From an uncultured Gemmatimonadales bacterium (GTDB lineage: Bacteria; Gemmatimonadota; Gemmatimonadetes; Gemmatimonadales; GWC2-71-9): DNA of 64,000 bases. Location: contig CAWGED010000007.1 of assembly GCA_963821525.1 (NCBI GenBank), forward strand, positions 1 through 64,000. Reading direction: 5' to 3'. Of this stretch, positions 4,989-34,769 are shown in pieces. Both the position numbers and the translations under genes were made by a program. The notes under the pieces were generated by a model, which searched no databases, had not been told where the DNA came from, and saw only the letters and a list, made by a program, of their open reading frames with translations. Numbering within the stretch: position 1 is the first letter of the stretch; each line of letters starts with the position of its first letter.

Positions 4989-5016
4989 TTGACGTCCTTG
5001 AGGAGCCGTTTACCTT
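4989..5016 (+). promoter_or_regulatory. Putative sigma70 promoter
   Basis: TTGACG (4989-4994), 16 bp, TACCTT (5011-5016); predicted start falls at about the ATG at 5024. Confidence 0.5.
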
Positions 5017-5023
5017 GCGTTGC

Positions 5024-5092
5024 ATGACGATCTCACTTACCTGCTGGGCCAATTCCGATCCCAACACGCACGTGATTAATACGGGCGGGTGA
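5024..5092 (+). CDS. Putative leaderless leader peptide MTISLTCWANSDPNTHVINTGG
   Basis: 22-codon ORF between promoter and terminator; its 3' end GGGCGGGT can pair with the terminator 5' arm. Confidence 0.45.
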   Translation: MTISLTCWANSDPNTHVINTGG

Positions 5093-5113
5093 GTCTGTCG
5101 TGATCCGATATCC

Positions 5114-5148
5114 GACGGCCCGCTCCCAATGAGCGGGCCGTTTCTTTT
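5114..5148 (+). terminator. Intrinsic terminator / attenuator hairpin
   Basis: gacggcccgctc-ccaat-gagcgggccgtt followed by tctttt. Confidence 0.88.
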
Positions 5149-5157
5149 GCGGGGAGC

Positions 5158-6720
<1,563 letters not shown>

Positions 6721-21838: not shown

Positions 21839-23948
21839 ATGCCAGTCCACAATTTTCTTCGCGACCTTGCCATCGTTCTGGTGACCGCCGCGATCACGGC
21901 GCTCACCTGCCAGCGGCTCAAGCTGCCGGTTGTCCTTGGCTACCTGCTGGCCGGCTTCCTGGTCGGTCCCCGAACTCCTCCCCGCCTCATCGCCGACGAA
22001 GCATCGATCCAGACTCTGTCGGAGCTGGGCGTCGTCTTGCTGATGTTCAGCATCGGGCTGGAGTTCCGCGTGCGACAGGTAGTCGCGCTCGCCCCAACCG
22101 CCGGGCTCACCGCGGCCGTCGAAGTCAGCGGCATGCTGGTGCTGGGCTATGCCGTCGGCCATCTCCTCGGGTGGACCTCGCTCGCCAGTCTCTTCGCGGC
22201 TGGAGTCGTAGCGATTTCCAGCACGATGATCATCGTGAAGACGTTCGAAGAAGAGCCGCCGGCGCGGGAGTTCAAGGACTTCCTCTTCGGGGTGCTGATC
22301 TTCGAGGACCTCGCGGCGGTCCTGCTGCTCACGATTCTCACCTCGGTTGCCTCTACCGGTGCCCTGACGATTTCTCTGGTTGGCCGTGGTCTCGCCGGTC
22401 TCGCGTTGGCGTTGCTCGTCATGCTGGCGGCGGGCATGCTGGTCGTTCCCCGCGCGGTGCGCGCTGCGGCGCAGCATTGGCGGCCGGAGACAATGGTGCT
22501 GGTCGGTGTGGGTTTCTGCTTTGGCATGGCTGCCGTAGCTCGGGCCTTCGGCTACTCGGTCGCCCTCGGCGCCTTCCTCGCCGGCTGTCTGGTCGCCGAG
22601 TCTGGCGCCGGGCGCCAGATCGAGCGGGAAATCCGGCCGGTTCGCGACATGTTCGCGGCGATTTTCTTCGTGGCGGTGGGGATGCAATTCGATTTCGGGG
22701 GAATTCGAGAGCACTGGCCGCTGGTGCTCCTCTTTCTGCTCATCGTCACAATGGGCAAGCTGGCCTGCGGTATCGGTGGGCTCCTTTCTGGCGGGACGCG
22801 GAGTCCGCACCGCGGTACGGACCGGCATGAGTATGGCGCAGATCGGAGAGTTCTCGTTCATCATCGCGGCCGTAGGCTTGCAACTGGGTGCGGTACCGTC
22901 CGAGCTCTACGCGGTGGCCATCACCGTTTCGGCTATTACCGCCTTCACTACGCCCTGGACCGTGCGGTACGCTCCGGCGCTCGCGGGATACGTGGACCGC
23001 AAGCTGCCCCATCCGCTTCAGTCCTTTGCCTCACTGTATGGGACATGGGTCGAAGCGTTGCGCCGCAGCCCTGCCCGAGGTTCCCTTCCCGCTGTGGGCC
23101 GATTGCTCTGGCTGCTGTTGCTGGACGCCCTCGCCGTCCTGGCCATCGTGCTTGGTTACCCCATCGTGCATCGTCGCCTTATAGACCTGATCGGCACGCA
23201 GGTTGGTCTCTCAGCCGGCGTGGCGCGCCTGGTGCTCGTTCTCGTCACGCTCGCCCTGTTGGCGCCGTTTGTGTTTGGTATTGTCGCCGTGGCGCGGCGG
23301 CTCGGCCTCGGACTCGCCGCGGCCGCGCTGCCACCGCCGGGCCGCGGGAAAGTGGATAACGCGTTCGCCCCACGGCGGCTCATGGGACTGACGATGCAGA
23401 TCGCGGTGGTGCTCCTGGTGGGAGCGCCACTCGTCGCGATCACTCAGCCGTTTCTGCCGCCCTTCGGGGGGATTCTGGTCCTGGCGGGGGTGCTGGCGCT
23501 GCTCGGAATCGGGTTCTATCGCAGCGCGAGTGAACTACAGGGTCATCTCAAGGCTGGCGCGGAGGTGGTTGTTGCCGCCCTCGCGAAGCAATCGGCGGCG
23601 GACTCCAGCGTTGATCTTGCCCGCCGCTTGCTGCCGGGCCTCGGTGACTTCACGGCAGCACACGTAGGCGAAGGAAGTGAGGCGGATGACCGCACCCTGA
23701 CCGAGCTGAATCTCCGTGGCCGGACCGGAGCCACCATACTCGGGCTGCTCCGCGGCGACCGCCGCATCCCGTTCCCCGACGCCGGAGAACGGCTCCAGGC
23801 GGGCGACCTGGTCGCCCTCACGGGCAGCCACGATGCCATCGCCGCTGCCAAGGCTCTACTCACCTCATCCCGGAGTCTCTCGATCACACCTGACAGCCAA
23901 TTTGAAATTTTCAATTTGCAATTTTCTAATTTCAAATCTTCAATCTGA
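21839..23948 (+). CDS. CPA2 cation:proton antiporter with TrkA-C domain (frameshift near 22775)
   Basis: GYLLAG, LMFSIGLEF, ISST, FEDL, ALGAFLAG, QIGEFSF; C-terminal LNLRGRTGATIL. Confidence 0.92.
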
Positions 23949-27511: not shown

Positions 27512-28147
27512 TTAAGCGTCGCCTTCCAGCTCGCGAAGGTCTTCCCGAGTATCGACGTCGGGGTTGGCGCCCGGCAGGTCGAGTGTCGCTACCGATCCGG
27601 GCTGAGAGGCGAGCAGCGAGCTGAGCCCATGGTCGCCCTCGAGCCGATCCACCAAATGCCAGAGTCCGCGATCGAGCAGCACCGGATGTCCGGGAGCGTC
27701 GGGCTGTTGTGAGTATCGGGGTCGGACCGAGATGCCCTTCTGTCGCCAGTAGTAGACCAGGTGTTCGATGGCGTCGTCTCGTAGCAGCGGCTCGTCTCCC
27801 AGAATGATGAGCGCGGCGCCCGCAGGAGGCGTTCGACCAGCCGCTGTGAGGGACTTGAGCCCACATCTGATGGAGGTGGCGAGCCCCTCGTCGGCATCCG
27901 GATTGGGGACCAACTCCAGTCCCGCGGTATCGAGGTGCCAGCCCAGCCGAGTGTCGCCCGACCGCACGACTGCCACTCCGCCTGCCAGGAAGCCGTTCGC
28001 CATGGCTTGAGCGATTGCGATTCCCACGTGGGCAATCAGCGGTTTTCCGTGAAACGGGGCAAGGAGCTTGTCGCCGCCGAAGCGCAGACCCTGTCCCGCC
28101 GCGAGAACAAGGGCGTAGGCGGCACTCTCCCCGGCCGTCAGGCTCAC
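27512..28147 (-). CDS. Molybdenum cofactor cytidylyltransferase-like NTP transferase (MocA-like)
   Basis: VLAAGQGLRFGGDKLL, GLATSI, LGDEP, GHPVL, DVDT; adjacent to xdhC. Confidence 0.85.
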   Translation of the reverse strand: MSLTAGESAAYALVLAAGQGLRFGGDKLLAPFHGKPLIAHVGIAIAQAMANGFLAGGVAVVRSGDTRLGWHLDTAGLELVPNPDADEGLATSIRCGLKSLTAAGRTPPAGAALIILGDEPLLRDDAIEHLVYYWRQKGISVRPRYSQQPDAPGHPVLLDRGLWHLVDRLEGDHGLSSLLASQPGSVATLDLPGANPDVDTREDLRELEGDA

Positions 28148-28216
28148 GTCATTCTCTCCCCGCCAGGGATAACCGGCGCCCCTGGACCATGGCGCATGTG
28201 CAACAGGGTCAAGGCC

Positions 28217-28245
28217 TTGACCCGTCGCGTCGCAGTTCTTACCAT
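28217..28245 (+). promoter_or_regulatory. sigma70 promoter for leader peptide/tRNA-Asn
   Basis: TTGACC (28217-22), 17 bp, TACCAT (28240-45); -35 sits inside the perfect palindrome GGGTCAAGGCCTTGACCC (28206-28223). Confidence 0.75.
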
Positions 28246-28254
28246 TGACGGCCC

Positions 28255-28326
28255 ATGATTACGAAAGCTGCCGGTCTCGCGAATCGAAACGCGAACAATC
28301 CGCCGACCAGGACGGGTTGGGCATAG
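28255..28326 (+). CDS. Putative Asn-rich attenuator leader peptide MITKAAGLANRNANNPPTRTGWA
   Basis: 23 codons, with 4 Asn codons within codons 10-15; lies between promoter and terminator upstream of tRNA-Asn. Confidence 0.7.
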   Translation: MITKAAGLANRNANNPPTRTGWA

Positions 28327-28351
28327 CCGGCGTCTGTAGCCCGCGCTGACC

Positions 28352-28383
28352 CGACCCGTCGTCCGGCGGGTCGCTTTGTTTTT
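28352..28383 (+). terminator. Intrinsic terminator (attenuator) directly upstream of tRNA-Asn
   Basis: cgacccgtc-gtcc-ggcgggtcg followed by ctttgttttt. Confidence 0.85.
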
Positions 28384-28455
28384 GGGGTGTAGCTCAACTG
28401 GCAGAGCGCCCGGCTGTTAACCGGGAGGTTGCAGGTTCGATTCCTGCCGCCCCAG
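28383..28455 (+). tRNA. tRNA-Asn (GTT), CCA not encoded
   Basis: Full cloverleaf: acceptor TGGGGTG/CGCCCCA, D arm GCTC/GAGC, anticodon arm CCCGG-CTGTTAA-CCGGG, T arm GCAGG-TTCGATT-CCTGC, discriminator G. Confidence 0.96.
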
Positions 28456-28460
28456 TAGTT

Positions 28461-28561
28461 CAGCTGTTAGCTATTAGCCATTAGCTCTTAGCTGTTAGCG
28501 GCTGACGGCTGACGGCTCACGGCCGACAGCTAATAGCTAAGAGCTAACAGCTAATCGCTGA
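28461..28561. repeat. Inverted pair of heptamer arrays (GCTGTTA left / GCTGACG-GCTAACA right)
   Basis: gctgtta gctatta gccatta gctctta gctgtta gcg gctgacg gctgacg gctcacg gccgaca gctaata gctaaga gctaaca gctaatc. Confidence 0.95.
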
Positions 28562-28565
28562 TCCC

Positions 28566-30146
28566 TCACCCCAACACTTCATACGCCGGAATCGTCAGAA
28601 ACTCCTCCTCCACGTCCCCAATCACCAGCCGATCCAGCAGTCGCGACGCATCCTGCATGCGACCCGGCGCCTTCCGCTCCGAAACCAGGCTCTCTGCCTC
28701 TCCCTGCCGCAGACGCTGGTACAGCTCTCCAGTGAACCGACTTCCATCGTCCAGAGCGACTCCGCGCTTCACCCACTGACGAAGTTGCATGCGGGAGATT
28801 TCCGCCGTTGCCGAGTCTTCCATCAAGTTGGCGATGCCGACCGCACCGCGTCCCTCCAGCCAGTTTTCGATGTACTCGAGTGCTACCCGGATATTACCCC
28901 GGACTCCAGCGACCGTAACCCGGCCTCCGGGGATCCGGACATCGAGCAATTGGTCTCGGGTGACCCGCACCTCTTCGCGCAGTCGCTCCTTCTGATTGGG
29001 ACGGTTGCCGAGGACCACATCGAATGCCTCACGGGCCACCGGCACCAGATCGGGATGAGCGACCCAGGAACCGTCGAACCCGTCGCCTGCCTCGCGACTC
29101 TTGTCCTCCCTCACTTTCGCCAGCGCACGCGCATTTACCTCGGCATCGCGCCGTGAAGGTATGAACGCGGCCATTCCCCCAATGGCATGCGCCCCGCGGC
29201 GATGGCAGGTCTGCACCAGCAACTCGGTATAGGCCCGCATGAACGGCACGGTCATTGTGATCTGTCCGCGGTCCGGCAGGGCGAATTCGGGTCGGTCTCC
29301 GAAATTCTTCAGCAGGCTGAAGATGTAGTCCCAGCGGCCGGCGTTGAGCCCGGAGGCATGCTCCCTGAGTTCATGGAGGATTTCTTCCATCTCGAATGCC
29401 GCCGGGGCAGTCTCGACCAGCACCGTCGCGCGAATTGAACCGGCCGGAATTCCCAGGGTCTCCTGGGCGAAGACGAAGACCGCGTTCCACAGTCGTGCTT
29501 CGAGATGGCTCTCCAGCTTGGGGAGATAGAAGTAGGGTCCGCTCTGCCGGCGCAAAAGCTCGGCAGCGTTGTGAAAGAAGTGAAGGCCGAAGTCAACGAG
29601 ACTCGCAGAAACCGGACTTCCGCCGAGCAGCAGGTGTTTTTCGTTCAGGTGCCACCCGCGGGGACGGACCACCAGCGTTGCCGGACGCGGGCCCAAGGCG
29701 TAGTGCTTCCCTTCGGGTGAGGTGTAACTGATTCGCCCCCGCACTGCCTCCTGACAGTTCAGCTGGCCGCCGATCACGTTCTCCCACGTCGGCGAGAGGG
29801 CATCCTCGAAGTCGGCCATGAAGACCTGCGCCCCGGAATTGAGCGCGTTGATCATCATCTTCCGCTCGACCGGCCCAGTGATCTCGACCCTCCGGTTCAA
29901 CAGATCGGCCGGCGCCGGTGCCACCTGCCAGGATCCCTCTCGAACCCCGCGGGTCTCGGCCAGGAAATCGGGAAGCTCTCCGGCTCTGAAGGCATCCCGC
30001 CTTCGCATCCGTGCCGCCAGCAGGTCCGCTCGCGTTTCCGCGAAGCGATGTTCCAGCGCCGCGAGAAAATCGAGTGCCTCGCTGGTGAGGACTTCCCGAT
30101 CGCCCTCCACAGGCGGTCCGGCGACTCTGAGTTGGGGTTGGGACAT
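28566..30146 (-). CDS. aceB: Malate synthase A
   Basis: [54 protein letters not shown]. Confidence 0.96.
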
Positions 30147-33554: not shown

Positions 33555-33740
33555 GCCGTCAGCCGTCAGCCGTCAGCCGCGAGCAATTAGAGTGTCGCCA
33601 TTAGCCATTAGCAACGAAGCCGCAGGCCCCGATCGGGAATCTGCGGCTTCTGCTTTTGTGTATGGGTTAGGGCTCAAGCCTCTCTAACCGCTAACCGCTA
33701 ACCGCTAACGTCGCTGACGGCTGACGGCCGAGGGCTGACT
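33555..33740. repeat. Inverted pair of heptamer arrays (GCCGTCA/GCCATTA left; CTAACCG/CTGACGG right)
   Basis: (gccgtca)3 gccgcga gcaatta ..(gccatta)2 ... (ctaaccg)3 ..(ctgacgg)2 ccgaggg ctgactc. Confidence 0.92.
33616..33657 (+). terminator. Intrinsic terminator between convergent genes
   Basis: gaagccgcag ... ctgcggcttc followed by tgctttt. Confidence 0.7.
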
Positions 33741-34769
33741 CACCGCAACGCCAAATACACCAATCCCGCCGTCGCCGCACTCATCGGAATCGTCAGGATC
33801 CAGGCCCACACGATTTTCCCCGCAACTCCCCAGCGCACCGCAGAGATCCGATTCGCTGTACCGACCCCGACAATCGCACCGGTGATCGTGTGAGTCGTGC
33901 TCACCGGGATGCCCAGCCGTGAGGCGAGGAGAATGGTGATGCCTCCGGCCGTCTCCGCGCAGAATCCTCCGAAGGGCCGCAGTCGCGTGATCCGTTGACC
34001 CATCGTCTTCACGATCCGCCAGCCACCCGTCGCCGTTCCCAGCGAAATCGCCGAGTAGGCCGCGAACTCCACCCAGAGCGGCACATGATCCGCCGAGGTC
34101 AGATGCAGGTGGGCGAGCCAGCCCGTCTTGTCGGCGAAGAGGGATTGGGTGGATACCAAGAGGCCCACGATGATGCCCATCGTCTTCTGGGCGTCGTTGG
34201 CGCCGTGTCCGATCGAGTAGAGTGCGGCCGACAGCAGCTGGAGTCTTCGGAACGTCCGATCGATGGGACCGGGCTGCCCCCGCCGGAGCAGCCAGGAGAG
34301 CCCAACCGTCATCCCGAGTGCGAGGGTCAGGCCGATCAGGGGAGAAAGGAAGATGAAGGCGATCGGCAGCACCCATCCGCTTCCGATCAAGGCGCTGGCC
34401 CCCGCCTTGGCGACGGCGGCTCCGCCTAAGCCCGCCCATCAGCGCGTGCGATGACGAACTGGGAAGTCCCAGCCACCAGGTGATGAGGTTCCAGACGATC
34501 GCCCCGGTGAGCGCGGCGAGGATGACGTGAGGATCCAGCACCGAGGGCTCGACCAGGCCCTTACCGATGGTCTTGGCGACGGCGGTGCCGACCAGGAAGG
34601 CGGCAACGAAATTGAAGACCGCGGCCCACACGACGGCCACGGCCGGGGTGAGCACCCGGGTCGCGACCACGGTGGCTATCGAATTGGCGCTGTCGTGGAA
34701 ACCGTTGATGAAGTCGAAAAGCAGCGCGACGCCGATGATCGCGACGATGTAGAGGACGGGGCCATCCAT
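33740..34769 (-). CDS. pit: Inorganic phosphate transporter PiT (frameshift near 34430)
   Basis: NGFHDSANSIAT, GLPSSSSHAL, HGANDAQK, PVSTTH. Confidence 0.94.

Follow-up and report, generated by a model that had tools for sequence, protein, structure and literature searches.

An Asn-codon leader and a probable ribosome-mediated transcription attenuator ahead of an accessory tRNA-Asn gene in Gemmatimonadales

The leader and its tRNA-Asn gene

The window, a stretch of 64,000 nucleotides from an uncultured Gemmatimonadales bacterium, carries on its forward strand a compact array of a promoter, a short open reading frame rich in Asn codons, an intrinsic terminator and a tRNA-Asn(GTT) gene (Table 1). 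The promoter is the sole promoter-like site in 27800-28800, where shuffled sequences lead one to expect 0.2, and transcription of the leader would be expected to start at about 28251-28253. The start codon sits 9 nt past the -10 box. At least four Asn among 22 codons would occur with P of about 0.002 given the codon use of this genome, and the last of the Asn codons falls within the 5' arm of a hairpin formed by segments 1 and 2. Segments 2 and 3 can pair at 11 of 11 positions, one of them G-U, and the final T of the terminator tail (28383) is at the same time U1 of the tRNA. The original prediction had described the promoter, the near-leaderless ATG lacking a Shine-Dalgarno (SD) sequence, the 23-codon ORF with its Asn codons and TAG, and the terminator whose U-tract ends on the first base of the tRNA; all of these were found in place, and the 11/11 pairing was reproduced. 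Absent from it were the 1:2 hairpin and a second, canonical tRNA-Asn(GTT) gene elsewhere in the genome.

Table 1. Features of the leader locus and of a second leader in the window (window coordinates; G000 is the genome of the window)
Feature	Position	Strand	Details
sigma70-type promoter, TTGACC-17-TACCAT	28217..28245	+	-35 28217-28222, 17-nt spacer, -10 28240-28245
Leader ORF, near-leaderless, 23 codons, no SD	28255..28326	+	ATG 28255, TAG 28324-28326
Control codons, Asn at codons 10, 12, 14, 15	28282..28299	+	starts 28282, 28288, 28294, 28297
Segment 1:2 hairpin, putative pause/protector	28297..28319	+	-14.5 kcal/mol, z -2.6
Segment 2, antiterminator 5' arm	28311..28321	+	within final five codons of leader ORF
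Segment 3, common to antiterminator and terminator	28350..28360	+	pairing/folding
Intrinsic terminator, 9-bp stem, 4-nt loop, U-rich tail	28352..28383	+	stem 28352-28373, tail 28374-28383
Accessory tRNA-Asn(GTT)	28383..28455	+	U1-A72, G2-C71, G73, no U20a, CCA not encoded
NifA-like GAF/sigma54 activator	gene 5158-6720; leader region 4989-5150, ORF 5024-5092		paralog G000:C8:77240

Downstream lies a malate synthase gene on the opposite strand (convergent), upstream a divergent gene for a MocA-like transferase, so that at the window locus the tRNA is the sole possible target of the leader. The genes downstream vary freely among relatives, which likewise points to the tRNA as target. A reading of the locus as an integration site or mobile element found no support, no neighbours being conserved. 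Directly 3' of the tRNA, at 28459-28560 of the window, repeats of 7 bases form an imperfect palindrome, and many other sites in this genome and its congeners have repeats like them; transcripts of the tRNA and of the convergent malate synthase gene may both end in the palindrome. Part of the window is represented in 14 RNA runs, and contigs from 4 of these were compared with it. Two runs each gave one 154-nt contig (28231-28384), which begins within the promoter spacer, ends where the conserved tRNA starts and shows neither start, end nor level of a transcript; the contigs of the two other runs cross the promoter.

The two tRNA-Asn(GTT) genes of G000 have 52 of 73 positions in common, and both copies possess U1-A72. 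The accessory type retains U1-A72 and G73 and adds an Asp-like G2-C71 pair. Positions 68-73, which the search pattern had left free, are invariant in 131/131 accessory copies. C38 is found in 6/131 accessory copies compared to none of 30 canonical ones; copies with C38 were noted at L025, L063, L064, L071, L090, L155 and L286. The accessory pattern, which is strict and misses divergent copies (four such were found), matched 94 of 301 genomes of the phylum: 76/125 in the own family, 17/71 in the sister family and 0/101 outside the order. The public matches to the same tRNA type that were listed (80 of at least 120) are labelled Gemmatimonadales or Gemmatimonadota. Derivation from tRNA-Asp was not supported, with 50 of 73 positions in common as against 52 with tRNA-Asn1 and 55 with tRNA-Trp. 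A tRNA-Asn whose acceptor starts in the same way is found on low-GC viral contigs (L242-L252), mostly inside tRNA clusters: 9/11 of these matches lie amid other tRNA genes and 0/11 have a leader. A link of the phage-cluster tRNA-Asn to the origin of the accessory tRNA is possible.

Recurrence of the leader and its alternative folds

By its own terms, the original prediction would have been refuted by a lack of conservation of the Asn codons and the reading frame in relatives; the outcome was the opposite. From 151 matches to the accessory tRNA type, duplicates and those with less than 250 nt upstream were removed, which left 135 distinct loci. At 35 of them the tRNA is preceded by a 14-28-codon ORF that contains three or more Asn, and at 30 a terminator within 90 nt is present as well. 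Since a few leader-like ORFs failed the terminator filter, 30 is a floor. As controls, the same filter on nine other residues yielded 0-1 loci each, and the reverse strand of the 135 loci gave 0 Asn ORFs. Lowering the threshold to two Asn gave 31 loci, or 28 non-redundant leaders after removal of three near-identical congeners; extra leaders occurred at 3 new loci of 30 and at 6/14 in another set, of which one duplicates an earlier locus and one is doubtful. Divergent versions of the leader are found across several genera and two families. They stand before the accessory tRNA type and before none of the canonical (housekeeping) tRNA-Asn genes (0/30 loci, two with less than 250 nt upstream). 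A scan of other tRNA genes, which had also been proposed, found a cognate-codon leader with terminator at 1/51, namely at the tRNA-Asn of the window. The unpublished genomes G018, G211, G095, G261 and G345 contribute to tallies only, and the conclusions are independent of them.

The 28 peptides are dissimilar apart from Asn, length, stop position and near-leaderless start. Their length is 21-23 codons in 23 cases, TAG is the stop codon in 25, a TANNNT box lies 3-15 nt ahead of the start codon in 24, and just three have an SD-like word. Asn makes up 20% of their residues compared to 2.5% genome-wide, mostly 7-16 codons ahead of the stop, with both Asn codons in use (61 and 56). AAY occurs 117 times in frame and 3 and 1 times in the other two frames, which is partly due to selection; in-frame Lys codons number 3. 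The distance from the stop codon to the U-tract is 46-71 nt.

Folding of the window locus predicts a switch. The terminator forms with a probability of 0.00-0.01 when a mask on the RNA mimics a ribosome at any one of the Asn codons, and of 0.98 when the mask extends to the stop codon. The claim that a stall would favour the antiterminator and arrival at the stop codon the terminator is thus borne out by folding for this locus. Full-length equilibrium folding gave a switch in 14/28 leaders. In transcripts ending short of the terminator 3' arm, an Asn stall left at least 6 nt of segment 3 paired with the ORF in 27/28 leaders, a co-transcriptional proxy in which this pairing at the stop is zero by construction; the one leader without antiterminator is L097. 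A 1:2 hairpin with z < -1 was seen in 15/28.

The proposed covariation of the stems received mixed support. Cognate 2:3 duplexes, at a mean of -17.4 kcal/mol, are stronger than swapped ones at -15.3 kcal/mol (permutation p 1e-4, although related leaders are not independent), and the cognate pairing ranked first or second in just 5/28 leaders. In the 8 alignable relatives the 2:3 helix pairs in 89.7% of cells compared to 32-51% when slid, but column-wise covariation in the 8 aligned rows did not exceed that of shuffles, with one two-sided change and an equally high score in 241/500 of them. If no ribosome is present, the window locus folds to the antiterminator at equilibrium and read-through is predicted; for this reason super-attenuation of the trp type is not assured, and loss of the ATG may yield read-through instead. 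Across the 28 leaders the mean terminator probability of the ribosome-free RNA is 0.65 in equilibrium folding.

Taken together, the arrangement is real and conserved, and it is highly probable that it constitutes a ribosome-mediated transcription attenuator controlling the accessory tRNA-Asn gene. In this model, a ribosome would load at the near-leaderless AUG. Fast reading of the Asn codons would bring it to the stop codon, where it would cover segment 2, so that the terminator could form and transcription would stop at base 1 of the tRNA. If charged tRNA-Asn were scarce, the ribosome would wait at codons 10-15 and cover segment 1; segment 2 would then pair with segment 3, and the tRNA would be transcribed. 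Translation of the leader, switching in vivo and Asn decoding speed as the signal are what we infer from this arrangement. Soil Gemmatimonadales probably make the accessory tRNA when charged tRNA-Asn runs short. The original prediction had gone further, with a tRNA induced by shortage of its own charged form. The feedback geometry is supported; since the genome also has a housekeeping copy that looks constitutive and the target is an accessory isodecoder, the pooled rate of Asn decoding would be sensed and not strictly the tRNA's own charged form.

Three accounts would dispense with Asn sensing by a ribosome. The leader might encode a small peptide or be an sRNA, in either case ended by a terminator of its own, and the tRNA might be made by fixed leak-through or from another promoter. 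Most loci indeed appear to express this tRNA without a leader, as no leader was detected at 104/135 loci and a plain promoter pattern lies within 140 nt at 56 of the 104 (4 in a control stretch), so that Asn leader control is dispensable; equilibrium folding without a switch in 14/28 also fits. However, Asn alone is conserved in the peptide, a second promoter-like site is lacking in 27800-28800, and the terminator tail abuts base 1 of the tRNA, which leaves no room for a promoter between leader and tRNA. We therefore regard an absence of regulation as quite improbable. Equally improbable is a general sensor of translation speed or antibiotics, in which ribosomes would stall at Pro-Pro or Arg-X-Arg irrespective of Asn supply. 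Pro-Pro does follow the Asn run in the window leader, and Asn is followed by Arg in 45/117 cases, but Pro-Pro occurs in only 3/28 leaders and [RK]-x-[RK] in 9/28, whereas 2-6 Asn are present in 28/28 (selected for at least two) and the target is the cognate tRNA. A terminator and an antiterminator that exclude each other, ahead of a gene related to Asn, would also suit a T-box or riboswitch that senses tRNA or a metabolite directly, the ORF being incidental; yet in an Rfam scan of the window tRNA was the sole family to reach its gathering score, with no T-box or riboswitch, and the leader measures about 130 nt and is conserved in frame, not in sequence, which makes this account extremely unlikely.

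Among the loci without a detected ORF, L012 retains a promoter and a G+C hairpin right before the tRNA and is possibly a decayed attenuator. L029, from G018, has two accessory tRNA-Asn copies 1.2 kb apart, both without a leader.

Asn supply and the role of the accessory tRNA

A genome-wide scan for a promoter, a near-leaderless ORF and a terminator gave 5 matches in 4.3 Mb. One (G000:C19:1064461, L161) is a Phe-codon leader ahead of prephenate dehydratase, a positive control which indicates that ordinary attenuators of this organism share the near-leaderless design. Two precede NifA-like sigma54 activators, one of them inside the window (Table 1); the activator leader is near-leaderless, with 22 codons, 3-4 Asn and a terminator. 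Near-leaderless leaders containing 3-4 Asn, together with a -10 box and a terminator, were seen at 7/17 homologous activator loci, the seven coming from two genera; the fixed search interval may miss some. The activator gene is preceded by Lrp/AsnC-family and EamA-family ORFs. The fifth match (G000:C19:197646, L298) is a near-leaderless leader before the glutamate synthase large subunit; among relatives (L299-L328; 30 fetched), leader and terminator occur in 11/22 parsed loci. A pure Asn leader was rejected for this gene, as Ala/Val/Ile/Leu/Thr abound in its leaders and Asn makes up 6%; these leaders may constitute a multi-amino-acid nitrogen sensor. Asn leaders ahead of asnS or aspS were not found in G000. 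A Cys/Met-rich leader with a terminator lies before O-acetylhomoserine sulfhydrylase (G000:C5:704781, L162).

G000 encodes AsnRS, one AspRS and GatB; AsnA, GlnRS and a second AspRS were not found in this genome, which is 81% complete. Three AsnB-family genes lie above the cut-off, and at least two adjoin genes resembling polysaccharide or nucleotide-sugar functions. E. coli-type AsnB is present in 1/125 and 2/71 genomes of the two families with accessory tRNA (3/196), and the accessory tRNA is absent from all three of these genomes. In two families of other orders it occurs in 13/23 and 21/49 genomes. AsnB-family genes in the broad sense were present in 4/5 genomes checked. gatB was not found in 20/196 genomes of the two families; of five rechecked, one was cut by a contig end and one was in pieces. 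The accessory tRNA occurs in 0/18 genomes without an intact-looking gatB versus 93/178 with gatB, and the uncorrected table p of 3e-5 is overstated by kinship (about eight genera). GlnRS is encoded by 5/35 relatives with the accessory tRNA and 15/25 without, and in the own family the accessory tRNA is present in 42/45 glutamate-synthase-positive genomes compared to 7 of the 20 negative ones listed (of 47). Genome G034 (99% complete) combines GlnRS, AsnRS, GatB and the accessory tRNA with its leader and has no AsnB-family match; in the accessible part of PMC4206432, such a gene set is taken as tRNA-dependent Asn synthesis.

AsnRS was present in 57/61 genomes. At the sites where the solved Asp/Asn ligase 4WJ3 carries His and Gly, the AspRS of G000 has Leu and Ser, respectively. 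His and Gly at these positions are what we take to be the non-discriminating signature, and this His occurs in 0/28 AspRS sequences listed; by its residues, the enzyme of G000 looks discriminating. In a tree of AspRS (quick method, 29 of 30 rows), leader-bearing genomes fall into at least two supported clades, and the residues of the AspRS loop showed no clean link to the accessory tRNA among the 29 rows, although Gly at the loop site is present in 5/5 rows of family f3, four of these without accessory tRNA. Some genes are split across frames (window 21839-23948 and 33705-34769; G000:C3:87712-89449), aspS among them; these look like assembly errors, as aspS is intact in congeners.

What the attenuator is for can be read in two ways. 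The accessory tRNA tracks with GatCAB, and E. coli-type AsnB is almost absent from the order; the tRNA may therefore serve tRNA-dependent Asn synthesis as an inducible substrate. We tentatively propose that it is, in effect, the cell's Asn biosynthesis gene: with its Asp-like acceptor and U1-A72 it would be loaded by an otherwise discriminating AspRS, amidated by GatCAB and switched on by the attenuator when Asn decoding slows, much as enzymes are in the case of trp and his attenuators. The route would then be opened via an induced, tailored tRNA and not by a relaxed synthetase, and a wider Asn-sensing set would include the NifA-like activator. According to the accessible part of PMC9976931, U1-A72 is the determinant of the amidotransferase, whereas among the Asp determinants G2-C71 is minor and C36/C38 are strong. 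Under pure Asn starvation, extra AsnRS-charged tRNA would add no Asn, but extra substrate for AspRS and GatCAB would. Against Asn synthesis speak the Leu/Ser of AspRS, U1-A72 on both tRNAs, the AsnB-family genes in the broad sense and the need of GatCAB for Gln. The attenuator may instead act as a supply homeostat or backup that boosts Asn decoding when the bottleneck is the amount, the modification or the integrity of tRNA, for example during fast growth or under attack by anticodon nucleases, with AsnRS charging the accessory tRNA like the main one. We give this possibility nearly even chances. It agrees with the broad presence of AsnRS, with AspRS enzymes that carry Leu/Ser and not the His/Gly of 4WJ3 (His in none of those listed), with the same acceptor start in tRNAs of phage clusters and with a GatCAB that is required regardless where GlnRS was not found. 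Also, the accessory tRNA retains U36 and mostly A38, which are not the strong Asp determinants given in the accessible part of PMC9976931. The strict G2-C71 acceptor, the C38 variants and the absence from gatB-less genomes are, however, left unexplained by a homeostat.

Relation to known attenuators and Asn-tRNA routes

The output of tRNA genes is usually ascribed to copy number, promoter strength and stringent control. If true, a cognate-codon attenuator on a tRNA gene would let decoding capacity feed back directly on itself, and Asn would join the amino acids that attenuators sense. With a divergent second isodecoder under control, a long-standing question becomes testable, namely what maintains tRNAs of differing sequence but one anticodon in bacteria, and how cells with both AsnRS and GatCAB switch from one route to the other; with about 170 nt, the element can be moved into a reporter. 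In agreement with the original prediction, which knew of no described case, neither a leader-peptide attenuator of a tRNA gene nor an Asn attenuator was found in the literature searched, supplements, subscription journals and older comparative surveys being outside its scope. The accessible parts of PMC7778990, PMC4695836 and PMC13236596 contain nothing on tRNA genes as targets.

The arrangement resembles the classical attenuators trpL, hisL and pheL (as modelled in the accessible part of PMC1183508) in its short ORF, cognate control codons, 1:2, 2:3 and 3:4 pairings, terminator and stop near segment 2. It departs from them in its target, a tRNA gene, in the sensed residue, Asn, in its near-leaderless start and in a product that would act back on the pool being sensed, and super-attenuation is not predicted at equilibrium for the window locus. 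His leaders before hisS paralogs in bacilli, and leader peptides ahead of synthetase paralogs, are described in the accessible part of PMC2965389, where 'asparagin' occurs 0 times. Like such leaders and pheM, the attenuator would tune the translation machinery of the amino acid that it senses, but those govern a synthetase mRNA and here it is the tRNA.

In Bdellovibrio and Staphylococcus, dual Asn-tRNA routes (AsnRS and AspRS/GatCAB) exist and relaxed AspRS specificity was measured, as stated in the accessible part of PMC4206432. Gemmatimonadales with the accessory tRNA share with them AsnRS, one bacterial AspRS, GatCAB, a U1-A72 tRNA-Asn and usually the lack of an E. coli-type AsnB; they differ in a second, probably regulated tRNA-Asn, none being described for the former in that part of PMC4206432.

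The pheM peptide is the leader of E. coli pheST, and T-boxes control Asn/Asp genes in Clostridium and some tRNA genes in Firmicutes. As with T-boxes, low tRNA charging would here induce genes of its own pathway, but T-boxes bind uncharged tRNA directly and none was detected in the window. The mycobacterial polycysteine sORF attenuators, leaderless and present at several loci under one codon signal (a 'ribulon'; accessible part of 10.1101/834739), work through a downstream ribosome-binding site in response to Cys, while the output here would be termination and a non-coding RNA; common to both are leaderless sensor ORFs and one codon signal that several loci share.
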